Part shown: positions 1 to 22,610 of the stretch, piece after piece
Layout of the letters: every line of letters starts with the position of its first letter
How positions within the stretch are numbered: the first letter of the stretch is position 1
Origin: a virus
Length of the DNA: 64,000 bases
Direction: 5' to 3' (one strand)
Virus record (IMG/VR): IMGVR_UViG_3300043466_002666
The notes under the pieces: generated by a model
Databases searched by the model: none
What the model was told of the DNA's origin: nothing
What the model saw: the letters and a program-made list of their open reading frames with translations, nothing else
Made by a program: the position numbers and the translations under genes

Positions 1-3000
1 CAGTATTAAATGCAGGGATAATATAAAATTCAGTTCCTGCAGTTAGATTTGTAAGTAGTGGGTTAGAAACTACGAAGGTAATTTCTTCATTTGCAGTAAA
101 TTCTACTGATTGATTACTGATTGCAGCAGTAGCATTTTGGTTTAACGTAATTGTATAGGTGAAGTTAGGTGAAGTGCCAGTTCTGTTAACAGAAGAAATT
201 CTGGTTCCAGTTGGAATACTTGAATGTATTACTCTAATTCCAGGAACAAGTCCGAATGCAACTGATGCAGCACCTGTGAGAGTAAATGTATTTGAACCAC
301 TTGCAATTGTAATGTTTGCAGTTCCAACACCAGTTGTCTGATTACCAGTTAGAGGAATACCATTTAGTCTATCAAGACCTCTGGTTGATTCAATGATTGA
401 TAGAGGATCAACAACTCCAAAAATTGCTTGTTCTGATCTATTATTAATAAATGTATTTACATTATTGGCAACTTGATGTGGAGCAGCAATATTTTGGAAG
501 ATAATTCTTCCTGAAGTTTCATTAGTTTGATCATTAAAATCAGCAGTTGCTCTCTTGGTGTTAATGATTTCACCAAAGATTAGGTTATCTCCAATTCTAT
601 TTCTAGATGATGGGGTAGCAGCAGTTCCACTTGCAGTACCAACTCTAAACTTGTAGAGTTTTGGCCAGGAATCAAATGTATCATTTGTTCCTCTTCTATA
701 CCAGCTTTGAGCTATATTTCTATGTGGTAGGGAAACAATTTGACCCACTTCAAACTTCTCAGCATCTTCATTTAGAGTGTCTGCAGAGCTAGTGACATCT
801 ACATATGCTCTATTGGTTGTAGTAATACCAGTGTGAGTTAGATATGAAGTGGATAGAGTTGTGTAACCGATTGCAGCAAGTCGCTTATATGTTGATGCAG
901 TTGTATCAACTGGATCTGCAAGTTTAATTTCAGTAGCAACTAGGTTGTTAACAGAAATTGTTGGAGTTGCAACAGTTGGGTTAGTTGGATCGCCAGGCTG
1001 TAGATTCTCAGTAATATCAAGACCATCCCAATCATGAATATATGAAGGCCAATACTTGGTATTACTTCTAGTAATAGTTAGTCTATAACCAATTAGATTA
1101 TTCACAAATATTTTATTAAAGTCACAAAGTTCTAGTTCACCGATTTCACATCTACCTGCAGATGGCCAGTATCTTAGAATATTATCATCTTCAAATAGAT
1201 CAAATCTTGATACTAATTCGCCATTTGCAAGTGTTCTGTTATATGTAATATTATATGATTCTTCTTCTAGTCTTACTACTAGTGAAGTTCTGATATCCTC
1301 TGGATTTGCTGGGTTTGCATACTGATAGATGCCTAGATATGGCTTTCCAAGAGTACTCTTAGCAATCTTATAGTTTTGACCACCATACTGAATGTAGTTT
1401 CCTGGAGCAATAATGGACTTAGCACGCTGTAGTGCTGCCTTAATACCAGTTAAACTTGTTTCGATAAAGTTATTTACAATAAATGTGTTGTTAGCAACTG
1501 CAGAGATGATTTCACCTGGCTCAAACATTTCATAATCAACATCAGTGATGTTTGTTCTAACTCTTGCAGTTTCTAGAACTGTAATTTCATAGTAATCATT
1601 TCCAGTTACAGGGTATCTTAGAACATCATTTTTATTGTTATTAAGACCTAATGAAATGATATCGAAGGAAAGAATATTTCCGGCCCCATCTGTCTCTAAT
1701 AAGGCTTTAATCTTATCTCCAGATGTTTGTGTCTTATTTGTATTGGTGAATTCAATTACATTTAAACTTGATCCAGATACTCTTGGAAGAGTTGCAATTC
1801 CATTTCCTCTCTTGACAATAGACACATCTTTTGGATTTGCAAAGATTGATTTCTTTTGTGCAGAATCAAAACCTAGTTCATACTTGGAATAAGTGGTTCC
1901 GTCAGCATTTGCAATCTTCTTGTATCTAGTTGTTAGAGTTGCAAGATAGTTAAATCTCTGTGATGGAATAAAGTTGGTTAGAAGTTGTAGTTGGAAACCA
2001 GACCAGTCAGTAATATTCGCAGTAGAATCATAGTTATTATATTCAATATTTCCAGAATATGTAATTTCAAAGTATGCAGTAGTTCCCTGCTTATAGAAGT
2101 TAAATGTTAAAACAATAGCAAGTACTGAGTCTACATTACCACCTCTTACAATTTTGGTGTAGTTAGGATAAACGTTTTTAGCAATTAATTCTGCTTTATC
2201 CTTTTGAGTTTGAGTATCATAAGGTAAGGTGAACACAAGTGTCTTGGAATTTAAAATCTTACTTGAGTCAGGATGTCCACCAGATACTCCTGCAGCAATA
2301 TTAATAAATGTATTATTAAATCTTAAATTATTTCCATCTAGACTTGAAGAAGTGCTTCCACTATAAGAAATATTCTGAGTTGTAAACTTCTCATCTAGAA
2401 TAACAGTTGTCTTGAATGATGTATTATTGGAATCATATTTAGGAATTGCAGAAATAGTTTGAATTGGGAATGTTCTGGAGTCATAGTCAACCCTCTTGCC
2501 TGATGGCAGGAAGTTTGGCTCGATGTAAAGATTATTAGACTTAGAGAATGTGGTATAATACTTGAAGAGAATATCATCTCTACTTACATTAATTCTCTTG
2601 AAATCATTATTTCCAATTGCATTAATAACAGTAGTTCCTCTTGGCTCAATGAGATCTACAGAGTGACCATATCCAAACTTATTGGTTGCAATGAGTCTAT
2701 TTGCAAGTGGTGAAGTTGCAGAATTATCATTTCCAGAATATAATAATGAAGACCAATCAAGAGTTAGATTTCCTCTAATTCTTACGCCATTAATGAAGAT
2801 TTGACCATTATTTGTGGAAATGATGCCACCATGATATGCACCGCCATATGTGTTTGAAACATCTGATGCGTCTGAGAATGCACCAATTGTAACATCAGAA
2901 AGTCTGATTTCATTGGTACTACCAGGAATTCCATTGATCTTGATTAAGCTTGCACCTAGATTTCCTACTGATGGAGCTGCAGTAGTTGGGAACTTCTTAC

Positions 3001-6000
3001 GAGTTACTCTATAGCTATTTGCATAGTTGATAAATACCTTTCTACCTCTTGTATCCATTCCAGAGCCACTAAGTCTATAACCAGAGCCAGCTTGAGATAG
3101 GTTGTACTTAGCAATTCTTTCAAATTCTTGGTCACTTACGAATCCAGTAGTTCTTCTTCTATCTTGACCAATTGTAACACCATCAATTGTAAATACCTGA
3201 CCATCAAGTAATGCATAACCATTAATATCTGCATAGCTAAATCCAGAGAATGCACCGAGAACTGAAGAATTTGCTCCAGAGTTATCTGGGTGTGATGCAA
3301 CTGCAGAAGCATTCACTTCAAGTAGATAGTATCTTTCATTCTGCCTACCATAAAGTCTTCTAAAACCGTTGGGGAATACTGGAACTGTTATACTATACTC
3401 TTCATTATTATTTCCAATTTGTACAGTGATTGAAGTATGCTTTGCCATATCAAACCACTGTGGGTAGATCTTCTTGGCAGGAACAATTGAACCAACTGTA
3501 ATTGTAATGTTATTTGAAGAGCTTCCTCCGAGTGAGGTGCCTGGAATTGTTAGAATATCTCCAATTTTATATCCAGAACCTGGAGTTGCAACTGTTACTG
3601 ATGTATATGCACCACCACTTCTAGTTACATTAAAGGTTGCTCCTGTTGAACCTGCGGTGCCACCTGTAGCAGCAACTGCAAGATAAGTTTGATCTCCAGT
3701 AACTGCAAAACCAAGTCTGCTGAAGGAGTTAACTCCGCCGAATGATGCACTTGGATTTAGGTCAATTACGAGGTTGATTGTATCTCTCTGATATCCCGCA
3801 ACGATACCAAAGATTTCTGGAGTATCGAATTCTGTATCATCATAACCTTCACCAGATGAAGTATATGACTTGGGTAGGAATTCTCTTCTCTTCTCTAGAC
3901 ACCAGTTGTAAGTTAGTGAAACAAACTCATCACCATCACGGTTGGTAAATACTAGATATACACCATCAGATAGATTGGTTGCAGATGTAAAATCAATATC
4001 CTCATCAGCAGAAGATCTTCCATCAGTTGGATCATATAGAGCACAAATAAGTTCAATTCCTGTCAAAGTAGAACCACTAATTACTTTTTTGACATCAAGA
4101 ACTTTTGTCTTCTTGGTTGATGCAGTTACACTTCCGGTTGTTGCATTTGGGAAGTAATACATGGTTGTGCCAGGAATTACATAATCTCTTAACCAATTAA
4201 ATTTCTGTAAATCAGAAGAAGTTGTGAAGTTAGATGCAGTGAATACAAACTTGATAAATCTTGAATCTTTTGAAATAAAAGTTGTTGAGTCTACAGTTGG
4301 ATTTACAATAGCACCAGAAGCATCAGTTAGAGTTTGATTATTCACATAGTATGAGAACAGACCCTTACCTGCAGATGCAGAATTATAAGTTGTATGGAAT
4401 GCAAGACCACCTTGAATATTTGCAGTTGATGCAGGGAATCCAGCAGATTGTTTTACATACCATGCCTTTCTAACTCTTCTTCTTGCAACGATTGTTGAAG
4501 GATCTGATGAGTAAGAATTATCAAGAATTTCATTTCTTGTAATTGCTTCGTTTAGACCTAGGAAGTGAATATTGGAAATGTTTAGTCCGCCAGTCGAGGT
4601 AATGTTGTCTCCAATGCTTGAAACATAGAGGTTATCAGTTCTTCCTCCCCAGGTATTTGAGAATCCAGGACTTCTGAAGAAGCTTACAGAGTCTCCAGAC
4701 TTAACTTCACTTAGGGAGTATCCGCCAATTCTACCAGCAGATCTCTTAGCGAATTCTTTAGAGTACTGTTCACTAGTTGATTGTACACCGGAACCATTGA
4801 TGACTAGTTTACATGGGAAGTTAGCACCAGTTAGTCTGTAATATCCAGGCTTCATGATGAGTTCCACTTCATCATTTGGACCAAATGATTGATCAGTTGC
4901 AAATTTAGCAACCTGAGTTAGATTTTCAAATGGTTGGAAAGTCTTAACAGCACGCTTAGTTTGTAGGTTTGCACCTAGAGCCTTAGATGTAACTGGGTTT
5001 GGAACAATTGAATCTGTATACTTAGTATCAATATCGCCAGTGTATGGAACTGGTTTCTGTGGTAGAGTATATAGAGTTGCACTTTCAATGTCTACATCTT
5101 CACTGATTGATTCTACATCTGGAATAAATGCAGTCTCAAATGTCCACTTATCTCCATAAGATGCATAAGTTTGACAACCAGTAAAGAAGATTTTGGTAGC
5201 TGAATCATCAATATAAGTTACATTGTTATCTCCACTTGATTGAGTATCAACTCTTCTGAGTAAGCAAAGTTGATTTGCAAAAGATGAAGTCTTGAAGTAG
5301 ATGAATGTAGTATATCTTACATTTCCAGAAACACTGTTTCTGATTGTTACTGCACCTCTTGTTGGAATTGCATTCCAGAAGTTTGAATCAACGGAGATTC
5401 TTACCGAGGTATCTCTTACAGGAGTGTCAACAATATTAGATGCAACATTTTGACCTAAAGTTCCTCTTACATATTGTGTATCAGCAATTGCAACATCATC
5501 GCCAATTACTGAAAGTACAGATGAATAATTCCTTAGAATTGTATGTAGATTGTACTGTGAAGATTTTGGAAGTACACTAGTTACATAGTCATAATATGAC
5601 ATGTAGTTTTGTGTTGATGAAATACTAATAGTATTATTAGTGTAATCTATATCATCATACTGTAGAGAAATATTAATTGTTGGATTGAAGTAGTACTTAA
5701 CTCCACCAACAGTTACATAGTCTTCAGAAGTAACTTGAGCAAGAGTCATTTCAAGATCAATTCTACCAAATGGAGGCATACCACTTGTATCAACAAGTCT
5801 TAGTCTATCAATTGCATAGAATGTTCCATTAGATACTGTGGAGAATGTAGCTCCAGTTAGAGTTACTTGAGTTCCACTATCTACTGTTGCAATGGTTGCT
5901 TCTCCAACGATGCCTACACCAGTTAGATTTGCAATCTTCATTCCAGGATACATTGCTGCAGTGCTTGAAATACCACTTAGAATACCACCAGTGGTTAGAC

Positions 6001-9000
6001 TTGCATTAAATGTAGTTGGAACAGTTAAACCAGTTACTGAGTCTAATTGAACAGAGTTTAGGAATGTTCTGCTTAATGGTTCAATATAAATTCTATTGTT
6101 GTCTAGGTTCACATTAGATGCAGATAGAATCTTCTTCTTGATTCTCCATGCATCGAGGAACTTAGGTGAAACATAGAGTCGATCATTGGTATCAGTTGCA
6201 ATATATCCAGTTTTCTCTGGTCTTGCACCCTTAGTGAAACCATAACCTTCTGGACCACCTTCTGGGAACTTCTCGCCATTGAGAATCTTATTGTTCGCAA
6301 TGAACATTCTATCTGTTACATACAGAGTCTGAATGTTAGCTCTGTCAGAAACAGTCAGTCTTGCAGTAGTAAAGAAGTTTGATAGGCCCTTGAGTAAGTT
6401 CTGTGATGCAGTGTTTCTTGCAGTAGTTGCAATTACATTGATAACAGTGTTGGCAATTCTGTTCTCAATATCTGATACATCAACACTATTAGATTCTGAA
6501 GATTTACGAACCTTAGGAACATTAAGTGTAGTGGATGACTGACCACCTGCCTGAATAACTTGGTTTCCAATGTAGAAGTCACCTTGAGAGTTTGTACCAG
6601 ATGAAGCAACGAAACCACCTGCGTTTTCGTAACCTTGAACGATGAACTGTTCGTATGCTTTGAGAACTCTAGTCTGTAGATTTGGGAAACCAGTTGAGTA
6701 GTTACCGGGACCAATACCGATATATTCCCAAGTGTGTGAAGAAGCACGGAGAATAGATGGTCTATAAAGTGGTATAGTTGGTGCAAGTGAGAGTAAAGTA
6801 TCTGATTCGTTGTCTACTGTAGCTCCGCTAGAAATTGATGTGGTGCTTGAAAATACACAAACAATCTTTCTTGATTCTTCATCAGATTGAATACCATAAG
6901 CGTTATCATCTGCAGATGCACTAAATGTTCTGCCAGAACCAATTCTATAACTGCTTCCATAGGTATTGAATGAAGTTGAGATAGTTGAGAAGCTGGCCTT
7001 ACCACTTCTGCTATCCCATGCAGCAACTGGTGCGACATCAATTGAAGTAGTAGTTGCAGCGTCTCTGGTTGCATAGCAAAGATTGAGTGCTCGTACAAGT
7101 CTATGGGCTGCTTCTGCAGTTACAGAAGTCATTGCAGGAACTTCTGCAAATGGAGTACCAGACTGACCACTATGATAATACTTTTTGTTTGGAACAGAAA
7201 CATCTTTTGCTCTATATCCACCAGTATTTGCACCATTGCCAAATACATATTCAACCATACAACGGGAATCCATTTGTGGTGGGTTCCAGAGTACTCTTGG
7301 GTTGGTAATATTTCCTTCTTCGTTGGTTGATGGATATAAGTAGTTTATATTAGACTGTACTCTATAATTGTTATCATTTCTGTAAAGCTCAGAAAGATTA
7401 TCTGCAACAATTGTCTGAAATTCGTCATCACGGGTGATAGTGACAGGAGTATTCTTGTAATTTCCAATGTCTCCATCAACAAATCTATCAATATCTGCTC
7501 TAAGAATAGTTAGATAGTATACTCCATCACGAATTCCTCTTTCCCAAGAATCAATTTCTTGGACATCATAAACCATGAAACGATAATTTGCATATGGAAT
7601 TCCATCTGGATCATTTCCGCCAGCAGTTCCTTTAATGATAAATCTTTTTTCAGGTGGCTTTGGAGTTACTGCAGTGGTTTTAGGAATTACATACTTAACT
7701 CTCCAGAGAAGATCATTTGGAACAGATCCTCTGGTATCTACAAACTTAGCAGAAGTCACTGAGCCAGGGAATGATTCCCAATAGGTTAGAACATTAATAT
7801 CTTCAGTAACTGAAACTACTTGGCTGCTTCCATCAGCAAGAGTTTCAGTTTTGGTGGTAAATTGAGTTTCAATAGTTTGTGAGAATAGGAAGTCAGAAAC
7901 ATATGTTCTTGATGAAGCATATGTAGGATTAATTTTTAGATATACTTTCTGTCTTGCAGGATCCCAGAAATAACCAATACGCTGATTATTATTTGGAACT
8001 TGGGAAGTTGAATCTCCAGTACCAGCAGTTAGCTGTAGAACTGCTTCATAAGTTGAAATGCCACCATTAGCATTGTCTACTTGGTTTGCAATTTTACAAT
8101 CTGCTTCTGCAAGTAAACCAGTTGCAGTATAGTATTCTCTGAAGAGATTGTAGTTATTGTTTGCACCGAAGGTTAGGAATCTCTTGGTTATAGTAGAACC
8201 ATTATTAACATCAGTGGTTTCAATTACAAGTTCTGGAATGTCATCTTCGCTGAGAACTCCAGGAATATCCAGATATACTTTAAATGAGTTGCCAGTTGCT
8301 GAGCTAAAGTTAATTTTTGCTTGCTTCCAATCTTGTTCTGCCTTTGTAGCAGATTCACCTAGGTTTGCTCTCCAAGTCTCTGTAGCATTAATTGGGTATA
8401 ATTCAGTGAACTGTGAAGTTCTATTGATACCTGCAGGTGGAATGAGTGCAGTAATCTTACCAGATGCAGATGGAGGATCGACCTGGAACTTATTACCAAC
8501 TGCTCTGAGTGAAATTTGACCGAAGTTGGAGTTAGAGTTGGTGATAGACATATCACCACCATTAACTGCCAAAAATTGATCAGCGTAACCAACAGCAAAA
8601 ACAGATACTACCTGAATGAAAGCTCCGTTGGATGCTTTGATGTGGAAATGTCTCCAATCATGCTTATACTCAGCATCTGGATCTGCATAGATTGGACCTC
8701 TGTTTGATGCAGAATCATCTTGAGTTGCGATGTTGCGTACTGTATCACCAGCTGCAAATGTAGTTCCAGAATCTGTGTAAACCTTACCAGTTGCGTTTCT
8801 TGGTTGCCAGTATGCAGTTGGATCTTTCTGTAGTGAGATACCAGTGAACTGAGCAACAACCATGGACTTGAAGCTACTCTCTTTTACTTTACTGCCATCG
8901 GTATGCATACCGCAAAGACCGAGGACAGAGCGAAGTGAGCAGTTGAAGATGTATGGTGAGCAAGAGTTTACAGTATCAATAGTAGTCTTTCTTGAAGAAT

Positions 9001-10516
9001 CTCCAACGATTTCGTATTCTTCAGTTCGTACTTCTCTTGTACCAGTTTCACCTAGAGCTTGTGCCCAAGCATCAATTCTCTTATAATATCTTTCTAGTTC
9101 ACCATCAGTAGTTCTTTGGTCTGCATATGTAAATGCAACTACTCTATGGTGAGAATAGTTTGAATTTGCTGCATTAGTGAATGAAGGAATGCCGCTTCCG
9201 CCATATGTTACAGAATTGATAGGAGTTGTAGCAGAATCTTTAAATGTCATCTGCCAGAAATAACAACCACCAGTTACCTTGAAGATTGAAGTCTGGTAAC
9301 CGACACCCACTACTTTTTTGTAGAGTGAAGTATATGTATCTGGGTTGTCGATAATGCCAGTAACGATACCCATGAGGCTTGCAATTGCAGACTCTGCAGT
9401 TGCACAACCCGCATCATAGGTATTTCCGGTGGAATAATCTACGCCAGCAGTAAATGTTGGCCTGTTAATTGTCTTGCCAGATGTAATTTCAGTATACTCA
9501 TACTGATCAGGAGTATTAGCATTACTCCATGCATTGATGGCAGAGATCATGATATCTCTTGCCTTGTTAAATGCTGCAATAGTAGCAGCCTTTTCATTGG
9601 TTCCAGTAATGTGCTGAAGAGCAGTACCGTTGGTATAGAATTCACCCGCTACAAATGAATTTGCGTTGCCACCCTCTCTAAGGTCTCCAATTACTGCGTC
9701 TACAATATATCCAAGGTCTCTCTTGCATGTTTCATTTATTTTTGAAACAGATGGATATTGTTGTTGTGCAAATAGGAATGCTTGTTCTACAATATATCCT
9801 CTTGACTTTTCAACCATATTAGCAGCATCATATATGACACCGCTAATTACATAGTTATCGCTTGAAATGCTTCCGTCATTAGAAACTGGAGATGGAACAT
9901 ACTTAGGACGAATTACAGTTTTTCTAAGATCATAACCGACGATAGAAGTACCTCTTGGTACGATAACACCACCGTTTCTTGGGTTGAATCTGTAAACTTC
10001 ATTACTAATATCAGTTAGCCCAGTAACTGGGTTTGTGACTACATCATATCCAGGTCTGTTATCAATGGTGTAATCACCCGGAAGAACCATAATGGTGTAT
10101 GCTTCAAACTTATCGTTTGCTGCACCAGCAACATAGCTTTTTCTGGACGCTTCAAGAAGTGCTCTCTCAATTGTTTTAAATGGCTGGTTAAGGTTACCAC
10201 CATTATTGCTTAAAGCGTCAGTAGCATTTTTGTCTGACTGGCTAACATATAGAACTACATTTCTGGAGTTTTCAAAATCTGGGTTAGTACCACCAAGAGC
10301 AGTATTATTTCCTGTAACAATACTTCCGTCTGCCTTAAAAGTTAATCTAGGTTGACCTGCAGTAGAAATTGAAAGTTCATTTGTCCCTGGGCTGTAGATA
10401 CCAGTCTGAGGACTACCTTCAAAACTTATAGCAGGAGCTGTTGGAGTATTATTACTATCGAACTTAATTACTATACCTTCCGCAATGCCACCAGATGTAA
10501 TTCTAGTTAGAGCCAT
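1..10516 (-). CDS. Giant virion structural / tail-fibre-like protein (>3500 aa), 3' end beyond window
   Basis: ATG at 10516 (MALTRITSGGIAEG...) lies downstream of late promoter TATAAATA (10550-10557). The same frame is still protein-like at the window edge (...FYIIPAFNT). The ORF track reports no terminated ORF in this frame, which implies no internal stop. Motifs YVSQSDKNATD...QPFKTIERALLEA...IMVLPGDY and GGVIVPRGTSIVGYDLRKT are typical of cyanophage fibre/beta-helix proteins. Confidence 0.8.
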   Translation of the reverse strand, partial: MALTRITSGGIAEGIVIKFDSNNTPTAPAISFEGSPQTGIYSPGTNELSISTAGQPRLTFKADGSIVTGNNTALGGTNPDFENSRNVVLYVSQSDKNATDALSNNGGNLNQPFKTIERALLEASRKSYVAGAANDKFEAYTIMVLPGDYTIDNRPGYDVVTNPVTGLTDISNEVYRFNPRNGGVIVPRGTSIVGYDLRKTVIRPKYVPSPVSNDGSISSDNYVISGVIYDAANMVEKSRGYIVEQAFLFAQQQYPSVSKINETCKRDLGYIVDAVIGDLREGGNANSFVAGEFYTNGTALQHITGTNEKAATIAAFNKARDIMISAINAWSNANTPDQYEYTEITSGKTINRPTFTAGVDYSTGNTYDAGCATAESAIASLMGIVTGIIDNPDTYTSLYKKVVGVGYQTSIFKVTGGCYFWQMTFKDSATTPINSVTYGGSGIPSFTNAANSNYSHHRVVAFTYADQRTTDGELERYYKRIDAWAQALGETGTREVRTEEYEIVGDSSRKTTIDTVNSCSPYIFNCSLRSVLGLCGMHTDGSKVKESSFKSMVVAQFTGISLQKDPTAYWQPRNATGKVYTDSGTTFAAGDTVRNIATQDDSASNRGPIYADPDAEYKHDWRHFHIKASNGAFIQVVSVFAVGYADQFLAVNGGDMSITNSNSNFGQISLRAVGNKFQVDPPSASGKITALIPPAGINRTSQFTELYPINATETWRANLGESATKAEQDWKQAKINFSSATGNSFKVYLDIPGVLSEDDIPELVIETTDVNNGSTITKRFLTFGANNNYNLFREYYTATGLLAEADCKIANQVDNANGGISTYEAVLQLTAGTGDSTSQVPNNNQRIGYFWDPARQKVYLKINPTYASSRTYVSDFLFSQTIETQFTTKTETLADGSSQVVSVTEDINVLTYWESFPGSVTSAKFVDTRGSVPNDLLWRVKYVIPKTTAVTPKPPEKRFIIKGTAGGNDPDGIPYANYRFMVYDVQEIDSWERGIRDGVYYLTILRADIDRFVDGDIGNYKNTPVTITRDDEFQTIVADNLSELYRNDNNYRVQSNINYLYPSTNEEGNITNPRVLWNPPQMDSRCMVEYVFGNGANTGGYRAKDVSVPNKKYYHSGQSGTPFAEVPAMTSVTAEAAHRLVRALNLCYATRDAATTTSIDVAPVAAWDSRSGKASFSTISTSFNTYGSSYRIGSGRTFSASADDNAYGIQSDEESRKIVCVFSSTTSISSGATVDNESDTLLSLAPTIPLYRPSILRASSHTWEYIGIGPGNYSTGFPNLQTRVLKAYEQFIVQGYENAGGFVASSGTNSQGDFYIGNQVIQAGGQSSTTLNVPKVRKSSESNSVDVSDIENRIANTVINVIATTARNTASQNLLKGLSNFFTTARLTVSDRANIQTLYVTDRMFIANNKILNGEKFPEGGPEGYGFTKGARPEKTGYIATDTNDRLYVSPKFLDAWRIKKKILSASNVNLDNNRIYIEPLSRTFLNSVQLDSVTGLTVPTTFNASLTTGGILSGISSTAAMYPGMKIANLTGVGIVGEATIATVDSGTQVTLTGATFSTVSNGTFYAIDRLRLVDTSGMPPFGRIDLEMTLAQVTSEDYVTVGGVKYYFNPTINISLQYDDIDYTNNTISISSTQNYMSYYDYVTSVLPKSSQYNLHTILRNYSSVLSVIGDDVAIADTQYVRGTLGQNVASNIVDTPVRDTSVRISVDSNFWNAIPTRGAVTIRNSVSGNVRYTTFIYFKTSSFANQLCLLRRVDTQSSGDNNVTYIDDSATKIFFTGCQTYASYGDKWTFETAFIPDVESISEDVDIESATLYTLPQKPVPYTGDIDTKYTDSIVPNPVTSKALGANLQTKRAVKTFQPFENLTQVAKFATDQSFGPNDEVELIMKPGYYRLTGANFPCKLVINGSGVQSTSEQYSKEFAKRSAGRIGGYSLSEVKSGDSVSFFRSPGFSNTWGGRTDNLYVSSIGDNITSTGGLNISNIHFLGLNEAITRNEILDNSYSSDPSTIVARRRVRKAWYVKQSAGFPASTANIQGGLAFHTTYNSASAGKGLFSYYVNNQTLTDASGAIVNPTVDSTTFISKDSRFIKFVFTASNFTTSSDLQKFNWLRDYVIPGTTMYYFPNATTGSVTASTKKTKVLDVKKVISGSTLTGIELICALYDPTDGRSSADEDIDFTSATNLSDGVYLVFTNRDGDEFVSLTYNWCLEKRREFLPKSYTSSGEGYDDTEFDTPEIFGIVAGYQRDTINLVIDLNPSASFGGVNSFSRLGFAVTGDQTYLAVAATGGTAGSTGATFNVTRSGGAYTSVTVATPGSGYKIGDILTIPGTSLGGSSSNNITITVGSIVPAKKIYPQWFDMAKHTSITVQIGNNNEEYSITVPVFPNGFRRLYGRQNERYYLLEVNASAVASHPDNSGANSSVLGAFSGFSYADINGYALLDGQVFTIDGVTIGQDRRRTTGFVSDQEFERIAKYNLSQAGSGYRLSGSGMDTRGRKVFINYANSYRVTRKKFPTTAAPSVGNLGASLIKINGIPGSTNEIRLSDVTIGAFSDASDVSNTYGGAYHGGIISTNNGQIFINGVRIRGNLTLDWSSLLYSGNDNSATSPLANRLIATNKFGYGHSVDLIEPRGTTVINAIGNNDFKRINVSRDDILFKYYTTFSKSNNLYIEPNFLPSGKRVDYDSRTFPIQTISAIPKYDSNNTSFKTTVILDEKFTTQNISYSGSTSSSLDGNNLRFNNTFINIAAGVSGGHPDSSKILNSKTLVFTLPYDTQTQKDKAELIAKNVYPNYTKIVRGGNVDSVLAIVLTFNFYKQGTTAYFEITYSGNIEYNNYDSTANITDWSGFQLQLLTNFIPSQRFNYLATLTTRYKKIANADGTTYSKYELGFDSAQKKSIFANPKDVSIVKRGNGIATLPRVSGSSLNVIEFTNTNKTQTSGDKIKALLETDGAGNILSFDIISLGLNNNKNDVLRYPVTGNDYYEITVLETARVRTNITDVDYEMFEPGEIISAVANNTFIVNNFIETSLTGIKAALQRAKSIIAPGNYIQYGGQNYKIAKSTLGKPYLGIYQYANPANPEDIRTSLVVRLEEESYNITYNRTLANGELVSRFDLFEDDNILRYWPSAGRCEIGELELCDFNKIFVNNLIGYRLTITRSNTKYWPSYIHDWDGLDITENLQPGDPTNPTVATPTISVNNLVATEIKLADPVDTTASTYKRLAAIGYTTLSTSYLTHTGITTTNRAYVDVTSSADTLNEDAEKFEVGQIVSLPHRNIAQSWYRRGTNDTFDSWPKLYKFRVGTASGTAATPSSRNRIGDNLIFGEIINTKRATADFNDQTNETSGRIIFQNIAAPHQVANNVNTFINNRSEQAIFGVVDPLSIIESTRGLDRLNGIPLTGNQTTGVGTANITIASGSNTFTLTGAASVAFGLVPGIRVIHSSIPTGTRISSVNRTGTSPNFTYTITLNQNATAAISNQSVEFTANEEITFVVSNPLLTNLTAGTEFYIIPAFNT

Positions 10517-13929: not shown

Positions 13930-15236
13930 TAAAACGTTGCTCCGCTAGGGACATTAGTTTGTTTAATTTCATTGCCACCAAATGAATCTCTTGTTAATGT
14001 AGCAATAGTTCTAAGTTCAGTTCTATTTAGGATGGTATGCTTAACTGAATGAACTATATATCTTCCACTAATTCTAGTATCTTCTTTAATTCTACCATCT
14101 TTACCTTTTTTGGGAGATGGTATCGAAATATTGATTACATATCCTGGCTGCAATTTTAAATCTCCTGGAATTGCTATTTCTAGTTTGTTATATTCTAAAA
14201 AGTAATATCTATAAATTGACTTTTCGTAATTTTTATTTACTTCATCTACATGATTTAATTTTTCGATTTCATCATTCGATAAATCTTTCCAGCCAAATGT
14301 AGATATTGTTGTTGGTCTATAGATTAATCTAGAGGGCTTTAATAATAATTCATTATCTTGAAATGGAGTCATCTTATTTAAATGACTCATATCTTTCCAG
14401 TATGTAGATGCATTTGTATTCCAATTTTGAAAATTTCTATTATTGATATCTACATATAAAGCATTATGTGCGAATGCACCATTACGAAGATCATCCAGAA
14501 TATCAAATGCTTTTGGAGAGGAGTAATTTAGTATTCTATAGTTGTTTAATTCTGTTTTCGATACTTTAGTATTTCCCTGAATAAAAGTATATTTTGTTCT
14601 TTTATTTGGATATGCATCTGCGTCAAATAGTACATCTAGTGATTTGTAATTATATCCATCAACCGTCTCATAGAAAAGATATCCCACGGAGGATTTATTT
14701 TTTACAGGTACACTTCTTCTTGACATCCAAATTGCAGCATCAAACAATCTCCAATTTGGGACATACATATCAAACGGATATAACGTTTCGTCTACATTTT
14801 TAAATTGTTTATCAGAAATTGATTTAATTTTTTCTTTCAAAAATACTTCTGCTTTTTTTCCATCAACTCTTTCACGAATTCTGGTGTATTCATTATCCAA
14901 AACTTCTTTGCTGACTGCATGAATTACATATGCCTGATTTTTTTCTTGCATCACTCGACCATCAATCTTGTGAATATAGAAATTTAAGGTGTAATTTGCA
15001 GCTAGTGTTGATAATACAAGTTGAATTTGCTCTCTTCCAATCAAAGGTAAAGTTTCAATTAAATTTTCCCCGATATCATTTATAACTAATTGACAGTATA
15101 TACTCGACGAAATAATACTTTGATAGAAAGTAACTTCATGCACTAACTCTTTAATGTCAAGTTTACTTTGATTGGCATTTAGTGGGTATAGAAATACAGA
15201 TTTTAGAGAAAAATCTCCAGTAAATTCTTGATTCAT
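13929..15236 (-). CDS. Baseplate hub protein (gp27/VgrG-hub-like)
   Basis: YLFYETVDGYNYKSLD, IPGDLKLQPG and SGRYIVHSVKH motifs of hub proteins; position next to gp5. Confidence 0.6.
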   Translation of the reverse strand: MNQEFTGDFSLKSVFLYPLNANQSKLDIKELVHEVTFYQSIISSSIYCQLVINDIGENLIETLPLIGREQIQLVLSTLAANYTLNFYIHKIDGRVMQEKNQAYVIHAVSKEVLDNEYTRIRERVDGKKAEVFLKEKIKSISDKQFKNVDETLYPFDMYVPNWRLFDAAIWMSRRSVPVKNKSSVGYLFYETVDGYNYKSLDVLFDADAYPNKRTKYTFIQGNTKVSKTELNNYRILNYSSPKAFDILDDLRNGAFAHNALYVDINNRNFQNWNTNASTYWKDMSHLNKMTPFQDNELLLKPSRLIYRPTTISTFGWKDLSNDEIEKLNHVDEVNKNYEKSIYRYYFLEYNKLEIAIPGDLKLQPGYVINISIPSPKKGKDGRIKEDTRISGRYIVHSVKHTILNRTELRTIATLTRDSFGGNEIKQTNVPSGATF

Positions 15237-18190
15237 TAGAGTCTTGTCTTGAGGTTAAATGCTAGTGAACTATCTATTGAAGAATATGATCCTGCAGAAT
15301 AGTCTGGAAATTCCACTGGAGTTATCAGGTTGGTGTTTGTTATTGTATTGGTTCCGCTCATCATAATGTATGTATCTGAATATGCAGTAACATCTTTAGC
15401 TGCTTGAAGATATTGCATACTGTCCTTTTCCATTTGTGCTCCATTAAATTTAGCTGGAGCATTTAACATTTGATATAATTTTCCAAGACTTTCTGATACT
15501 TTAATAGGATCAAATGCTGGTTGTTGATCTTGAGTAGATTCTTCAGCAGGAGCCACCCTATCAGCTTCAACTGTTGGTGTTTGAGCTGCTGGAGATGTTG
15601 CTTGACCAGGAGTTCCACCTTTTCTCAGTAATGAAAACAATCCTTGAGTTAATGGATCAACCTTACCATTTAAAGTTTCTGCTAAATCTTTTTTTGTAGT
15701 GTGTTGTTCTAGGTGTAAATGTGCTCCACCAGATCTTCCTGCACCAGGAGTTTTTGGCACACCTCCACTCATTGCAATTACAGAATTAGGATTAAAATTT
15801 TGACCCTCTTTTACCCAAGAAGGAATAGAACTTAAATGTGCAAGTCTAGCAATCTTTCCATCAGTTAATTTAACATCCATATATTGACCATAGCCACCAT
15901 TAGCTTCTTTTTCTACACTAGAAGTTCTACTAATTTTCATAAACTGTCCACCCAGCGTAAATGATAATGGAGTTCCAGACCCAAATGCAATATCTATTCC
16001 TTCATGTGCATGTTTTCGGAATGATTCTTTCTTGCCAAATTTACTAGTAATATCTCCTCTAGACACCAATCCACCAGTTTGCATTTTTGCAACACCAGCA
16101 GTGTTGAAAGTATGTCTCTTATAATTTGTTTCGTTTACTTGTTGAGAAGTATCTATACCTGCACCCGCAGAATAATTTCTAAATCCAGTTGCATTGATCA
16201 AATACTTAATAGTATTTCCACTTAGACCTTCAGCTTCTAATGCAGATTTCAATTTAGATTTATCCATGCCCATTGCTAGGGCTTTTTCTGCAAGATCTAA
16301 AGATCCTTTACCCCATTGCTTATTAATATTACCATTACTAACTGGAGTGTATTGTCCTGGGCCATATATAATTCCACGAATACTTTTATCATTTGCACCA
16401 TAGAATCCTGCTGATTTGCCAGAATCTAATATTCTCTTTCTATTGAGTACAGAATTTACAACTAGTGCCATACCAACAACACCTTCACCAGCAGCTTCTG
16501 CAAGTGCAAGTTGTTTTAGTAAAGTTCTATCATCAGCAGAAGATAAATCTACTTCACCAGTAAGGTCACCAATATCTTCAGCAGGATCTCCTGGTCTTCT
16601 TTTATTTTTAGATTTTTTAGTAAAATCTAGATTAATAATATTGTTTAAAATGTCTGCAAGTATTTCACGAATACTATTGCCAGAATTATATCTTGCTTTC
16701 TTGGATTCTTCTGATGATTCTTTCTTTGCAATGATATTTAAAGTTTTATTTAAACCAAGTACCTTTTCAAGTTCTGAATTAGATGATTGTTTCTTTTGAT
16801 CAATATTAAACCCACCTGTTGTTCCACCAATATCAGATGTAAATACATAATTACTTGACCCAAATTCTCTTCGATAAGGTGATAATAAACTAGATGCATA
16901 TGGACGAATTGTTAATCCAATAGGTCCTAGAGAAGATATGACAGCATCAATTCCACCAATCATTGAGGATGCAACTACTCCCATAGGAGCATTTAATATA
17001 GTCCCATCGTAAATTCTAGGCAGAGGAATAACTGCTTCTGGTCCTGCTTCACCAATAAGTGCTCTAGTTGGTTTTGTTACAATACCACCCACTGCAAGAG
17101 CAGGTTCTTTTGGTGCAGAAAATCCTTTAAAGAATCCATATAATTTATCTCCAACCCAATCACCAAGTAATCCACCAACAACAGCACCAAACGTAGCACC
17201 AGCAGCAGTACCAGCAAATGGAATGATACTTCCCAATGCTCCCATGACAATACCACCAAGCCATGCACCAATGCTAGATCCAATCAGCTTTACTGCAGCT
17301 TTATCTAATGGATCTCCAAAAATTAAGTTGAGTCCAAATCCAATAACAGGACCAATCAATGGAATTTTACTTAATGGTTTTGCTGCAGTTTTTATTGTAT
17401 TTTTTACAAATTCTTTTGCTGAAGCAAATCCAATTTTAGATGCTACTTTTACTAAAAACTTTAATGCGTTCTTTCCAAATACTTTAAGTATAACTCGTTT
17501 AATTCCAGCAGTTAATCCTTTGGAGTATGCAATATAGAGATTAGGATTTAATAATTTAAATATTCCTTCAATAGCTTCTTTGAATTTACCAGATCCTATA
17601 TTTGTAAATACCTTACCAATATTCTTACCATTCTTTAGAATCCATACAATGTCTTTTAATATCTGACCTGGGAATAATAACCTCTTGATGATAAAAAATC
17701 CACCAATAGCTTTAAATACACCAAAGAATCTTTCTAAAAAACTACCTCCAAATAAAACACTATGCAATCCACCAAGAACACCTTCGACACCAACTCCAGC
17801 AATAAAGTCAATCATCTTGAATATATTTTTCATTGCCTTAGCAATTTCACCAAGAGACTTTACATTCTCTGGCTGAGACATCCATTGAAGAATTTTATAC
17901 CCTGCAAAAAATTTGAACAAGTCATATAATTTCACTGACTGTTCTTTTATTTTACCTCGTACAGCACCCGAAACTGTATTAGACTTTTTTAATTCTTGAC
18001 TTCTTTCTCTTTCTGATATTGCAGATCTATCAATTGATTCTTTTTGAATTTTGAAAAATTTTTTCTCTAAGTCAAAATTTTTCTTTTTCTGTAATACTAA
18101 ATTTTTGGCAACACCATGTACCGTCTTCAACTCTTTGAGACGAGTATTACCTATAATGGAAGCTGGTCTAACTGGTGTTAAATTTTCCAT
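15236..18190 (-). CDS. Tape-measure-like virion protein with SleB-type (Hydrolase_2) and peptidase M23 domains
   Basis: LALAEAAGEGVVGMALVVNSVLNR (cell wall hydrolase); HEGIDIA and GAHLHLE (M23 HxxxD/HxH); Gly-rich hydrophobic helices. Confidence 0.7.
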   Translation of the reverse strand: MENLTPVRPASIIGNTRLKELKTVHGVAKNLVLQKKKNFDLEKKFFKIQKESIDRSAISERERSQELKKSNTVSGAVRGKIKEQSVKLYDLFKFFAGYKILQWMSQPENVKSLGEIAKAMKNIFKMIDFIAGVGVEGVLGGLHSVLFGGSFLERFFGVFKAIGGFFIIKRLLFPGQILKDIVWILKNGKNIGKVFTNIGSGKFKEAIEGIFKLLNPNLYIAYSKGLTAGIKRVILKVFGKNALKFLVKVASKIGFASAKEFVKNTIKTAAKPLSKIPLIGPVIGFGLNLIFGDPLDKAAVKLIGSSIGAWLGGIVMGALGSIIPFAGTAAGATFGAVVGGLLGDWVGDKLYGFFKGFSAPKEPALAVGGIVTKPTRALIGEAGPEAVIPLPRIYDGTILNAPMGVVASSMIGGIDAVISSLGPIGLTIRPYASSLLSPYRREFGSSNYVFTSDIGGTTGGFNIDQKKQSSNSELEKVLGLNKTLNIIAKKESSEESKKARYNSGNSIREILADILNNIINLDFTKKSKNKRRPGDPAEDIGDLTGEVDLSSADDRTLLKQLALAEAAGEGVVGMALVVNSVLNRKRILDSGKSAGFYGANDKSIRGIIYGPGQYTPVSNGNINKQWGKGSLDLAEKALAMGMDKSKLKSALEAEGLSGNTIKYLINATGFRNYSAGAGIDTSQQVNETNYKRHTFNTAGVAKMQTGGLVSRGDITSKFGKKESFRKHAHEGIDIAFGSGTPLSFTLGGQFMKISRTSSVEKEANGGYGQYMDVKLTDGKIARLAHLSSIPSWVKEGQNFNPNSVIAMSGGVPKTPGAGRSGGAHLHLEQHTTKKDLAETLNGKVDPLTQGLFSLLRKGGTPGQATSPAAQTPTVEADRVAPAEESTQDQQPAFDPIKVSESLGKLYQMLNAPAKFNGAQMEKDSMQYLQAAKDVTAYSDTYIMMSGTNTITNTNLITPVEFPDYSAGSYSSIDSSLAFNLKTRL

Positions 18191-18191
18191 T

Positions 18192-20861
18192 TTATGGTGC
18201 TATCGGATAGTTAATTAATGGATTTGGTGGAGTTGTATTTCCAAGTGCCGCAGTCATTGGCTGTGAAGTTGTTTGTGTAATAGTTTTATTTGGTTGTCCC
18301 AGTGTAATAACATTGCCACCAGTTTTGGATTGGCTTCTAGATTGACTTTGAAGTTGTAAATTTTCTTTTTGAACTCTCTGTAAATTTCCAGATGATTGTG
18401 AAACAGTCTGGGTTATTTTTGGTGGTGTTGCTGGCTTTGGTGTTGAAGTTAATTCTTGATTAGGTGAAGGAGCATTCAACATCTTGAATAATTTCCCAAG
18501 ACTTTCTGCAGCAGATGTTGCCATTTCTGCAGTAAATTCTGATGAAGTATTATTTTGATCTTGATTTGTCGTATCTGTAGCTGCAGTTGAAGATGTTTGC
18601 CCACTTACAGAGGGAGTAGCTTTACCTTTTGTCCATGCAATTGGTTCTACTTTTCCCCCAATTGTTCCATTCCAAGAACTTCCAATCTCCCAATGTAAGT
18701 GTGGACCAGTACTTCTTCCCCCACCATGTTGATGTCCACTAGAAGCAACTTGTTCTCCAGTTTTTATCAAATCTCCTTGTTTCTTGGCATACGAACTGAC
18801 ATGACCAAACAATGAGAATATTCCATTATTACTTTTTAGAACAATATAATTTCCCCATCCACCAGGATTTTTATTAATCTCATGAACTTTCCCATCAAAA
18901 GGAGATAGTAATGGAGTTCCCACAGGCATTGGTAAATCTCTTGCTGTATACCCATGTTCAAGACCTCTACCCATCACAACTCCTTTAGAGTCTTCTGGAA
19001 CTGGTGCCCAACCACCGCCAAGTTTCAGAAACTTTCTAGTTGCCACTGGACCACCACTACCAAATCTAGGATATAATCCATAATTAATTTGATCGAGAAC
19101 CTTTGGTCCTCCCATTCCATTAACTGCATTTTTATTCAACACATATTCGTTTGGTTCTAATAGTGCAGGAATCTTATCTCCGACTCCTTGGCCGGGAACC
19201 GCACCAGAGGTAGAAGATCGGTCAAATATTGGAGAGATGGAAGGGGCAGCAGATGGAGCCGCTGGAGCTGCTGGTGGAGCTGCTGGAGTGGCTGCTGGTC
19301 CAGGTGGAGTGGTAGCTGAGGGTACAGTGGCAGACTTATTCTGTTTACTTATCAAAGCACCCAATATATTTCCAAGCAATCCTTTGACAGTTGTATCTCT
19401 ACTAGCATTGAAATCTTCACCTTTCTGTTGATTTATATTGATCTCTTGTTTTCCAAATAATTCTGCAACATCTCCCATTCCAGACGTTACCATCTCACCA
19501 ACACCACCAACAAAGCCAGTCATTCCAGACACTAATCCAGGTGGCAATCCAAATCCAGATGCAATATTAGAAATCAAAGGTTTTATAAATTGACCAATTC
19601 CAGGAATTTTTCCTACAGTAGATGAAATTAATGCTAATATTCCAGCTCCAATAATCTTAAAAGGTAACGTCAATAACTTCATGAATTTAGGAATTACCTT
19701 ATTGGTAGTTGCCTTGAATCCATCAATTCCAAATGAACCCAATTTGTCTAATGGAAGGATTGCTTCTGGACCAGCCTCACCGACGATAGCTTCAGTTGGC
19801 TTTGTTACAATTCCACCCTTTGCTAACTTTGGAAGTTCTTCTTGAGACTTACTTCCTGTAAATAATGACTTGATAGATCCACCAATTTTTGCACCGATGT
19901 CAGTAGCAATATCTATTCCTGGGAATAGAGTTTTTAAAATATTTTTGCCAATATTTGATAGAGATTCTTTTGCCTTTTCTCCTAAATCTCCTTGCCCAGT
20001 TTTATCAGATTCTGCAGATGTTTCTGCTGGAGATTCTGCTGGCTTTTTAGTATCTACTGATTGCTCAGCTTGACCTTGAAGTTCTTTTTGTCCACCAAGC
20101 AATCCATTGGTTAAAACAGATTCTAGAAAATTTGGTAATAGATTAGTTAAAAATTTTACTGTCAGTGAAATTGCATTTGGAATGCTTGCAAAGACTGATG
20201 TTACATCCTCTATAGTTTTAAGTAGCCATTCGACTCCACCACCAATCCATCTAAAACTAAAAAACTCTGCAACCTTACCGACAAAATCAAATACCCCATT
20301 GATTACCTTAGAAGTAACCGTAATGGTTTTCATTAATACATCAACACCAAATTCAGTGACTGCACTAATGAATTTAAATATCTTTGTGAATAAAGTTACA
20401 AAGTCCTGAATTTTTTTTGAGTTTGCTGGGTTGGATGCCCACTGAAGAACTTTGTATCCAACAAAAAATTTCAAGAGATTCTTAAAGAATTCTCCAATCA
20501 TAGAAAGGTCAGACTTTGCCTTTTCTACAATAGAATTTGCATTTGATTTTTTTCCACCTCTTCCTCTACCTTCTTCTTGTAATCTTTCTCTTTCTCTAGA
20601 TTTTCTTCTTTGTTCTTCCTTTGCAAAGTTTAAAATTCTATCTCCAAGAAAACTATAATACTTTTTCTCGATGGCAAGTAAAGTTCCAAGGGTTTTTCTA
20701 ATCTGACCTAATTCTTCAATCTCTTTTTTGGCGATAATATTCCCAGACAATCTAATAGGTCTCCCCCCAGTAATAGCTGATGGATTTACTGGGGAAAGTC
20801 TTCTAGATCGGAGAGACTCAGCAAATGATTGCATTGATGTCTGGGTTTGTCTTTCTGCCAT
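18192..20861 (-). CDS. Tape-measure-like virion protein with peptidase M23-like domain
   Basis: PVGTPLLSPFDG, GWGNYIV, LFGHV and STGPHLHWEI; shares GGIVTKPT...GEAGPEA with the neighbouring gene. Confidence 0.7.
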   Translation of the reverse strand: MAERQTQTSMQSFAESLRSRRLSPVNPSAITGGRPIRLSGNIIAKKEIEELGQIRKTLGTLLAIEKKYYSFLGDRILNFAKEEQRRKSRERERLQEEGRGRGGKKSNANSIVEKAKSDLSMIGEFFKNLLKFFVGYKVLQWASNPANSKKIQDFVTLFTKIFKFISAVTEFGVDVLMKTITVTSKVINGVFDFVGKVAEFFSFRWIGGGVEWLLKTIEDVTSVFASIPNAISLTVKFLTNLLPNFLESVLTNGLLGGQKELQGQAEQSVDTKKPAESPAETSAESDKTGQGDLGEKAKESLSNIGKNILKTLFPGIDIATDIGAKIGGSIKSLFTGSKSQEELPKLAKGGIVTKPTEAIVGEAGPEAILPLDKLGSFGIDGFKATTNKVIPKFMKLLTLPFKIIGAGILALISSTVGKIPGIGQFIKPLISNIASGFGLPPGLVSGMTGFVGGVGEMVTSGMGDVAELFGKQEININQQKGEDFNASRDTTVKGLLGNILGALISKQNKSATVPSATTPPGPAATPAAPPAAPAAPSAAPSISPIFDRSSTSGAVPGQGVGDKIPALLEPNEYVLNKNAVNGMGGPKVLDQINYGLYPRFGSGGPVATRKFLKLGGGWAPVPEDSKGVVMGRGLEHGYTARDLPMPVGTPLLSPFDGKVHEINKNPGGWGNYIVLKSNNGIFSLFGHVSSYAKKQGDLIKTGEQVASSGHQHGGGRSTGPHLHWEIGSSWNGTIGGKVEPIAWTKGKATPSVSGQTSSTAATDTTNQDQNNTSSEFTAEMATSAAESLGKLFKMLNAPSPNQELTSTPKPATPPKITQTVSQSSGNLQRVQKENLQLQSQSRSQSKTGGNVITLGQPNKTITQTTSQPMTAALGNTTPPNPLINYPIAP

Positions 20862-20865
20862 TTAC

Positions 20866-21054
20866 TTACAACGATGTTGTTGTTTTATTTTTGAGATTCT
20901 CTTCTTCAATGTAATCTACCAACATTTGCACATATATTTCTCTTTCCCACGGAAGCATATTTTCAATTTCTGAAAGAGCCCACTTATGATGTTGAAGTAA
21001 TATAAAATTAATTCTGAAGAAATTTTCTAGCGACTCATGTGCTAGGGCTATGCG
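20866..21054 (-). CDS. gp51: gp51-like baseplate hub assembly protein, -1 frame extension of gp26 with no start codon of its own
   Basis: 62-codon frame RIALAHESLENFFRINFILLQHHKWALSEIENMLPWEREIYVQMLVDYIEEENLK... beginning at slippery site T-TTT-TTC; not in the ORF track. Confidence 0.75.
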   Translation of the reverse strand, partial: RIALAHESLENFFRINFILLQHHKWALSEIENMLPWEREIYVQMLVDYIEEENLKNKTTTSL

Positions 21055-21758
21055 AAAAAAGACGCAAGACCCTCCAATACAACATCACTTTCAACATTAG
21101 TTACTGGGTTAGTAACTTTAACCGTATGAGATAGTTTTGGCATAGTCTCAAAGAATTTTTGAATTAACAAAAACTGAGCCGTGTCTAAACTATCTAGAAA
21201 CTCATTGATTTCCTTTTTACTGAAACTCTTTGTTTCATATACATCTTCACCTTCTACAACTTGTTCAATACAAGATGCTGCAATTTCAAATACATCTTCA
21301 GTTTTTGCATTGGCAGTAAAGTTTGTTTTGACAAACATCTCCATGCTAGGATATTTCATTACAACAGAAATAGTATCATTCAATGAAATAATTCTGGAGT
21401 GATCTTCAAATTTTTGAACTTTAATATCTTCAACATTGAGTTCAAGAGGAACTGTAGTTTCTCCATCATCTGGACATGTAATATTTAAATCAATCTGTTC
21501 TCCAACAGACTTTGCACGGATATTGAGAAACAAATACTCAATATCAAATACAGCAAGATCATCAACTTTAATTTTAGATATAATGCAGTTCTTCAGAATA
21601 GTCTTGACTGCATTGATCATTTGATTTTCATCTTCAGATTCCATAGCCATGAGAAGAACTTTCTCTTCTTTTACTAGGAATGGTCTGTATTTAATTAATT
21701 GATCAGTTGATGGTAAACGCAATTCATACGTCGGAGTTACAATTTTTGGTAAAGGCAT
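21048..21758 (-). CDS. gp26: Baseplate hub assembly chaperone gp26-like
   Basis: MPLPKIVTPTYELRLPS...YRPFLVKEEKVLL...DIEYLFLNIRAKSVGE...CPDD...LEGLASFF. Confidence 0.9.
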   Translation of the reverse strand: MPLPKIVTPTYELRLPSTDQLIKYRPFLVKEEKVLLMAMESEDENQMINAVKTILKNCIISKIKVDDLAVFDIEYLFLNIRAKSVGEQIDLNITCPDDGETTVPLELNVEDIKVQKFEDHSRIISLNDTISVVMKYPSMEMFVKTNFTANAKTEDVFEIAASCIEQVVEGEDVYETKSFSKKEINEFLDSLDTAQFLLIQKFFETMPKLSHTVKVTNPVTNVESDVVLEGLASFFA

Positions 21759-21788: not shown

Positions 21789-22610
21789 TTAGGTGATGTC
21801 CGCCCAAGATGTTGTTATTTTAGTAGAGTTTTCTCCAGTCTGAGATGATGGTACTGCAAGTTCGTATTCAAAAGTAACCTGAACTTTTACTAATTGTGAT
21901 GATCCACTGGATAATGGTATTGCCGATATTGTTGTTGGGAATGCATTTCTCAATCTAACTGAGTATGTTGCAAATGGTTTACCAAACCCAGAAATATACT
22001 TAAGTCCAGAGTCTGGAATAATTTGATCACTGATATAAAAATTAGATTGAGAGTCTAATTGTATAGTTTTTAATCTAGTATTTTTTCTACTACTTCTATG
22101 TCTTTCAAGTTTAATTACAATTATATCACAACAATAATCATCTCTATATCTAGTTCTACCCAAATCAACACTTTGATTCATATTAATGTTTGTGTTTATG
22201 GTATTTCTACCTGATAATGAAACCCCAGTATAAATGTAATTGCCCCAGGAATCAAAAATTCTTCTAATTTCAGAATCTGCATCCAAAATAAATGAAATAG
22301 TAATCTCATTGTTTACAATTCCATATGCATATTTCATCGTAGGAGTATTTGTAATTCTATAATCTCCTGTAGAAATAGAATACCCAGGGATAGAACACTC
22401 ATCTGCATACACTCTCACAAGTCCTTGCATAAAAGATTCATCATTAGTATTTACATCTCCAGTCATGCCAAGGGTAAATAAATTTTTTAATAATTTACTG
22501 CTATTGACAAGTTCAAATTGAATATCATAAAAATTACTTAGAGAAAAACCATATCTCTCTACATATCCTCTAAATTCTTTAAAATTTTTAGGAATCGTAT
22601 TAATACTCAT
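21789..22610 (-). CDS. Tail tube initiator / gp54-gp19-fold protein
   Basis: ADECSIPG, FILDAD...FDSW, YRDDY and LRNAFPTTISAIPLS...VQVTFEY tail-tube-family motifs. Confidence 0.65.
   Translation of the reverse strand: MSINTIPKNFKEFRGYVERYGFSLSNFYDIQFELVNSSKLLKNLFTLGMTGDVNTNDESFMQGLVRVYADECSIPGYSISTGDYRITNTPTMKYAYGIVNNEITISFILDADSEIRRIFDSWGNYIYTGVSLSGRNTINTNINMNQSVDLGRTRYRDDYCCDIIVIKLERHRSSRKNTRLKTIQLDSQSNFYISDQIIPDSGLKYISGFGKPFATYSVRLRNAFPTTISAIPLSSGSSQLVKVQVTFEYELAVPSSQTGENSTKITTSWADIT

Follow-up and report, generated by a model that had tools for sequence, protein, structure and literature searches.

A probable -1 frameshift at the end of gp26 and a start-less gp51-type tail in a T4-like phage: predicted short and long tail assembly chaperones from a single gene

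In the T4-like cyanophage studied here, gp26 and gp51 are probably not separate genes but the two parts of one, read together when a fraction of ribosomes shift into the -1 frame at a slippery heptamer near the end of gp26, so that a short and a long tail assembly chaperone (TAC) would be made from a single start. A wider claim, that some recoded gp26-gp51 fusion is produced, whether by the ribosome or during transcription, seems to us very likely. The window, a stretch of 64,000 nucleotides from IMG/VR virus record IMGVR_UViG_3300043466_002666, had been read in this way in a first-pass annotation, and that reading is now supported by the T-run, by the -1 frame of the tail, by selection on that frame, by the make-up of T4 gp51 and by a TAC-like fold. 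The elements of the junction in the window are as follows.

21758..21048, minus strand: gp26 ORF, the TAC short form, 236 aa (PF12322, E 6.4e-74; phrog_150, E 5e-82)
21060..21054, minus strand: putative slippery heptamer T_TTT_TTC in X_XXY_YYZ phase, its first T being the third base of TCT (Ser)
20866..21060, minus strand: -1 frame gp51-type tail, 64 codons including both Phe codons, 62 new residues, ending at the TAA at 20868..20866
21087..21085, minus strand: TGA closing the -1 frame upstream, which leaves that frame open for 8 codons before the heptamer

What the data below show is how the junction is built, how well it is conserved, what it is homologous to and that the fold is TAC-like; that the shift takes place, that it is ribosomal, the ratio of the two forms and their binding partners are inferred. 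Most ribosomes would read gp26 through to its TAG and yield the 236-aa short form. A minority, holding two tRNA-Phe on UUU UUC, would slip back by one base, re-pair on UUU UUU and continue in the -1 frame through Arg-Ile-Ala-Leu-Ala-His..., giving a 297-aa long form with a helical gp51-type tail. The two products would be the counterparts of T4 gp26 and gp51 and would correspond in function to lambda G and GT. Short and long forms together would cover the tape measure protein, whose gene comes next downstream, and the tail of the long form would dock this assembly to a partner in the tube or hub as the baseplate hub and tail are put together.

Gp26 is a full-length member of the PF12322 T4_baseplate family, to which T4 gp26 and gp51 belong; the profile scores 248.8 bits against a cut-off of 24.5 and places residues 9-236 on its positions 2-219. 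The 3' end of the gene reads GCG TCT TTT TTC GCA TAG, and the heptamer that had been picked out there is right in sequence, phase and coordinates. The -1 heptamers recorded as efficient in Escherichia coli include U_UU.U_UU.C, and U_UU.C ranks second among the tetramers (PMC4066793). From the heptamer on, the -1 frame comprises 64 codons, the first TTT included, and reads FFRIALAHESLENFFRINF... (also given as FFRIALAHESLENFF...). Its product hits phrog_634, 'baseplate hub assembly catalyst' (gp51), with an E value of 5.8e-27, as well as the C-terminal part of phrog_150, and the 62-codon gp51 proposed for this frame is thereby confirmed. Modelled alone, it forms three helices, the first starting at the junction (pLDDT 76). 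The frame had further been described as start-less and closed shortly upstream; the TGA accounts for the latter, and no ATG, GTG or TTG occurs in the window's -1 frame ahead of the 35th codon, the Met of ENMLPW. The two ORFs overlap, the second lying in the -1 frame and having no start of its own, which is the arrangement of lambda G/GT. Reading across the heptamer joins 233 residues to 64, and the sum, 297 aa, agrees with the length of about 297 aa estimated in the first pass; the junction peptide of the predicted fusion is ...GLASFFR followed by IALAHESLENFFR.

Evidence that the heptamer is more than an accident of codon usage comes from relatives of the gene. We collected 80 IMG/VR loci and 3 GenBank cyanophages which, with the window itself, make 84 loci; the gp26 relatives among them are 52-100% identical. 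These loci reduce to 68 distinct junctions and, when three distant phages are added, to 71, falling into 26 clusters at 80% amino-acid identity. The survey of gp26 3' ends that the first-pass annotation had suggested gives a uniform answer, with TTTTTTC in phase and the gp51 tail in the -1 frame in all 84 loci. An in-phase heptamer is present at 71/71 distinct junctions, and the relative frame, on whose constancy the frameshift reading hinged, does not vary, the tail always being -1 in the 71 distinct relatives. The upstream opening of the -1 frame is less fixed in these relatives: it precedes the heptamer by 0-19 codons, in most cases by 4 or 8.

Much of this constancy falls on bases that are free to vary at the protein level. 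The codon ahead of the T-run is TCT, AGT, GCT, AAT or GAT, encoding Ser, Ala, Asn or Asp, and its third base is T in all 71 junctions (P ~4e-6 over the 26 clusters, given a background of 40-82% T-ending use in the same genes). The first Phe codon is likewise TTT in 71/71 (P ~8e-6 over 26 lineages, against a background TTT use of 64%), and the second is TTC in 70/71. In none of the 71 sequences is the T-run lengthened, and in none is the base preceding it a T. Synonymous sites near the junction are otherwise saturated, because the Gly, Leu and Ala codons just 5' of the site use every available synonym. Close to where the first ORF ends, the relatives thus conserve an in-phase, putatively slippery heptamer, and on these sequence comparisons its presence and its relation to the tail frame lie far beyond chance.

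Selection on the -1 frame can also be seen at the very point where slipped ribosomes would enter it. The two Phe codons are followed in the -1 frame by CGN (Arg) in 65 of the 71 junctions, with all four synonyms in use, by CAG in 5 and by TAC in 1, while the zero-frame residue on the same bases may be Ala, Asp, Gly, Glu, Val, Ser or Thr. As the -1 Arg is kept while the zero-frame residue varies, the -1 reading must be under selection from the heptamer itself onward, which lies upstream of every codon that might serve as a start, and this holds also in lineages that have an ATG downstream. In 37/71 junctions, there is no ATG, GTG or TTG between the upstream stop and tail codon 9; extending the search to tail codon 14 leaves 30/71 with none, and seven of the 37 start-less junctions are also missing CTG, ATT, ATC and ATA. 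About half of the lineages are thus without a start codon for the tail. For the tails of start-less lineages, dN/dS has a median of 0.21, and 3-8 stops interrupt the remaining two frames. Because these start-less tails are under purifying selection and the other frames are interrupted, the tail is evidently translated.

A direct view of what the long form may look like is provided by T4 itself, where genes 26 and 51 are transcribed divergently. In T4 gp51 (249 aa), PF12322 covers residues 1-201 (E 4e-52) and phrog_150 the full length, and phrog_634 is hit with an E value of 1.2e-23. Residues 200-242 of T4 gp51 align to a profile built from the cyanophage tails, starting at the junction Phe, with an i-E of 6e-7 in a two-sequence comparison and an hhalign E of 9e-4; the residues at the junction are VF-KLLVNPDEIFTFYQINH versus FF-RIALAHESLENFFRINF. 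Profiles are required to see this relationship, as in pairwise BLAST against T4 gp51 the tail is not significant and gp26 is weak at best. T4 gp26 (208 aa; 3803-4429, minus strand, of our T4 record, L004) ends in GLKEFFELL and so has the GL..FF motif in common with the cyanophage short form. T4 gene 26 is also annotated with an internal-start product, 26', which initiates at AUU. Since T4 gp51 consists of a gp26-like domain that continues into this tail at the equivalent junction, the fusion of 297 aa predicted here would be its counterpart, and T4 encodes short and long forms as two paralogues. A tblastn search with T4 gp51 turns up about 1380 records with standalone long forms, the majority belonging to phages that infect enterobacteria, Acinetobacter or Aeromonas; one is annotated as 'tape measure protein assembly chaperone'.

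The central idea, that gp26 and gp51 are the short and long TACs of T4-like phages, was already published in 2022, as far as the title of that paper and the articles citing it convey its content. According to the latter, Vladimirov, Gautam & Davidson (Virology 566:9-15, 2022; PMID 34826709) treat gp26 and gp51 as the TACs of T4-like phages (PMC10885494, PMC12846349) and describe short and long TAC genes in these phages (PMC10885494); it is Leiman et al. who cite the work in the former article (PMC10885494). The title mentions a mechanism that is not translational frameshifting, which the authors of PRFect take to mean 'two separate genes'. PolyT -1 signals have also been reported in the TAC-N genes of T4-like phages (PMC12846349). 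The wider implication drawn in the first-pass annotation, that the T4-type 'hub chaperones' are tape-measure chaperones, is accordingly not new. Our literature search found no protein, ribosome-profiling or reporter evidence of the slip in any T4-like phage. The present case belongs to a described system, and its remaining value lies in the annotation and in a slip that has apparently never been demonstrated experimentally.

Structural modeling is consistent with a chaperone of this kind. The AlphaFold2 model of gp26 has a pLDDT of 85, and by VIA-align the best match of its residues 1-90 is the HK97 tail assembly chaperone 2ob9 (Z 6.8, rmsd 3.8, 84 aligned), followed by YqbN 3klu (Z 6.5) and 3fgx (6.3), after which the scores drop to 4.2. 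The top group is coherent and clear of the rest, which suggests that the N-terminal domain of gp26 resembles the HK97 TAC; because Z lies below 8, the match gives this moderate support. A Foldseek search of the PDB with the gp26 model gave no match, and a sequence profile against the PDB gave nothing. For the tail together with the upstream tube-fold protein, complex prediction returned 'no answer', with a score of 0.00.

The gene neighborhood points in the same direction as the fold. Flanking the gp26-gp51 junction are three genes on the same strand.

21789..22610, minus strand: tube-fold protein (gp54-like / 'gp19.2') upstream of gp26, 273 aa (PF23849 Phage_TTP_2, E 7e-15; phrog_45 tail tube, E 7e-31)
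18192..20861, minus strand: tape-measure-like protein with M23 peptidase, 889 aa (PF01551, E 7e-19; weak PHROG tape measure hits)
15236..18190, minus strand: second tape-measure-like M23 protein, 984 aa (phrog_10093, 12798 and 973 hits outside the M23 region)

The 889-aa gene begins 4 nt past the TAA of the tail. It shares with the 984-aa protein an N-terminal FF.GYK.LQW, the motif GIVTKPT...GEAGPEA..PL and a C-terminal M23 peptidase, and the tandem (15236-20861, minus strand) looks like a duplicated tape-measure-like gene. Neither copy resembles T4 gp29, and a BLAST comparison of T4 gp29 with the 889-aa protein found no similarity. In relatives, the downstream genes match the tape measure families phrog_58 and 305 over long stretches. 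The placement of gp26-gp51 between a tube-fold gene and tape-measure-like genes, which the first-pass annotation had noted, is thus confirmed, with the tape measure identity in the window resting on weak hits. An open frame of more than 3500 aa occupies 2-10516 on the minus strand and runs off the start of the window.

Two elements that might stimulate a shift lie close to the slip site.

21045..21041 / 21031..21027, minus strand: CTAGC/GCTAG hairpin, starting 8 nt after the heptamer, -6.8 to -6.9 kcal/mol
21070..21075, minus strand: Shine-Dalgarno (SD)-like GGAGGG, ending 10 nt upstream of the heptamer, a possible stimulator

The hairpin exists where it had been described, but it is weak and is not conserved. 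Its z value against shuffles is -0.43, and 24% of equal-length gp26 windows fold at least as well. When the 42-60 nt after the heptamer were folded for 26 lineage representatives, alifold found no common structure; strong hairpins 5-10 nt past the site occur in only 6/26 lineages, and several lineages have none. With an ordinary energy and no structure shared across the 26 lineages, we rejected the downstream hairpin as the defining stimulator. Upstream, by contrast, GAGG/GGAGG at this 10-nt distance is conserved; its Glu codon is GAG in 16/21 lineage representatives, versus 30% elsewhere in gp26 (binomial p 2e-5). The run also encodes a conserved Glu-Gly, which leaves it no more than a candidate stimulator.

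The arrangement extends beyond the cyanophages. The T-run, the stop and the -1 tail are also found in Sinorhizobium phage phiM12 (T_TTT_TTT), in Stenotrophomonas phage Bhz51, in KVP40-like Vibrio phages, in Rhizobium phage RHph_I1_9 (T_TTT_TTG) and in Cronobacter phage S13, which has T_TTT_TTC and a start-less, unannotated tail. The heptamer is in phase in 5/6 distant phage groups, and its third codon differs among them, being TTC, TTT or TTG. Vibrio phage D509 has a -1 tail and no T-run; its gp26 ends ...CTT TTC AAG TAA with a TAATG overlap (record L090, ~1590-1830), and this lineage may have switched to separate translation of the tail.

GenBank annotation gives little sign of any of this. 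The slip is annotated in none of the 11 gp26-family records inspected (T4 aside). Eight of the 11 (L001, L002, L086-L089 and L092 among them) carry a 54-60-aa ORF that begins at an internal or stop-overlapping start and is named gp51 or 'hypothetical protein'. In the other three, S-CAM8, S13 and D509, gp51 is without annotation.

L003, 3212-3391: unannotated gp51 tail of Synechococcus phage S-CAM8
L091, 1576-1738: unannotated gp51 tail of Cronobacter phage S13
L090, ~1600-1810: unannotated gp51 tail of Vibrio phage D509, where an unrelated 35-aa ORF is annotated

How the two frames are joined, or whether they are joined at all, could be explained in other ways. RNA polymerase might slip on the T6 run, so that an extra U in some transcripts brings the tail into frame. 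We consider this unlikely, although several properties of the site would suit it: the strictly invariant part is the six T's, with the next base C, T or G by family, a variation to which a mechanism dependent on run length would also be indifferent, a downstream RNA stimulator is not conserved, and the 2022 paper, at least in its title, points to a non-translational mechanism. However, six T's are short for bacterial RNA polymerase. Its slippage usually occurs at runs of 7-9 or more, and here the run is never lengthened in the 71 sequences. A remark on U7/A7 avoidance partly supports such a need for length, and the same source gives U_UUU_UUC as a proven ribosomal -1 motif (PMC4066793). The SD-like GAGG at a dnaX-like distance of 10 nt upstream also speaks for the ribosome rather than the polymerase.

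It is also conceivable, but in our judgment very unlikely, that there is no fusion and that gp51 is a separate small protein, made by termination-reinitiation or from a non-canonical start such as the ATA at 21051..21049. Stop-start overlaps of the ATGA, TGATG and TAATG types would themselves place the second ORF in the -1 frame, and an ATG overlapping the stop of gp26 or placed shortly after it (TGATG/TAATG type) is present in about one-third of the distinct junctions, lying within 8 nt of the stop in 25/71. In the junctions with such an overlap, a separately translated gp51 of 57-60 aa is possible. D509, with its TAATG and no T-run, the independent gp51 ORFs of GenBank and the internal product 26' of T4 can be cited to the same effect. 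Yet separate translation leaves unexplained both the invariance of the T-run at synonymous sites and an Arg codon that is conserved upstream of every candidate start, and it sits poorly with the 37 start-less junctions, seven of them without even a near-cognate codon, and with T4 gp51, a contiguous fusion joined at the same point. The ATA, which overlaps the TAG, was rejected as an initiator: the equivalent codon varies in many start-less relatives (ATA 32, TTA 11, CTA 8, GTA 8 and CTC 7 among the junctions), and the GGAGG is 19 nt away, too distant to serve it. Finally, a homopolymer sequencing or assembly error, or a tail that is a decaying remnant, might be suspected from a break that falls in a homopolymer run, but both are refuted, the former by 84 independent loci, from isolates as well as metagenomes, that agree in run length and frame, and the latter by purifying selection on the tail.

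If the ribosomal -1 shift is accepted, a broader and more doubtful proposal can be considered. The groups in which one frameshifted gene takes the place of two are Kyanoviridae, Emdodecavirus, Menderavirus, Pootjesviridae, Schizotequatrovirus and outlying Straboviridae. The record nearest to the window, a 45-kb fragment, has one PF12322 copy, which is uninformative as to a second one. We put forward only tentatively the combined suggestion that the single-gene frameshifted state is ancestral and the most widespread among T4-like phages, that the T4 pair is a derived duplication, and that the upstream GAGG at dnaX spacing, not a downstream structure, drives the shift. Should this be true and lie outside the 2022 paper, it would be a new detail, and several hundred deposited genomes would mis-annotate gp51.

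Four known systems help to place the proposed gp26-gp51 frameshift. The closest is T4, which shares with the window phage the families PF12322, phrog_150 and phrog_634, a short form ending in the same GL..FF motif, and a long form in which a gp26-like domain and a helical tail are joined at the same residue as in the fusion predicted here. T4 differs in having two divergent paralogous genes where the window phage has a single gene and a start-less -1 tail. In lambda G/GT, the order of genes is the same (a tube-fold gene, a chaperone with its -1 extension, and the tape measure), a heptamer likewise precedes the short form's stop by a few codons, and no start belongs to the second ORF. The -1 frameshift is said to be conserved in the TAC genes of long-tailed phages, a result attributed to Xu, Hendrix & Duda (Mol Cell 2004). 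There is, however, no sequence similarity to lambda, the slip site is G_GGA_AAG there versus U_UUU_UUC here, and the chaperone domain here is the larger of the two (236 aa, extra domains following residue 90) and its partners are predicted.

The remaining two systems bear on the slip site and on its possible stimulator. T7 gene 10A/10B, whose slip site is G_GUU_UUC, resembles our case in its U-rich site, in the use of tRNA-Phe on UUU/UUC and in giving a minor, C-terminally extended product; it differs in being a capsid gene that encodes an unrelated protein and in having GUU rather than UUU as the P-site codon. The 10A/10B frameshift has been mentioned as a polyT signal (PMC12846349). The other system is E. 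coli dnaX, which has, like the window, an SD-like GGAGG/GAGG 10 nt before the heptamer. The upstream stimulator of dnaX acts at a spacing of 10 nt, and it was reportedly Larsen et al. in 1994 who described the dnaX -1 frameshift with such a Shine-Dalgarno-like element. Unlike the window, dnaX combines it with a strong downstream hairpin and an A_AAA_AAG site.
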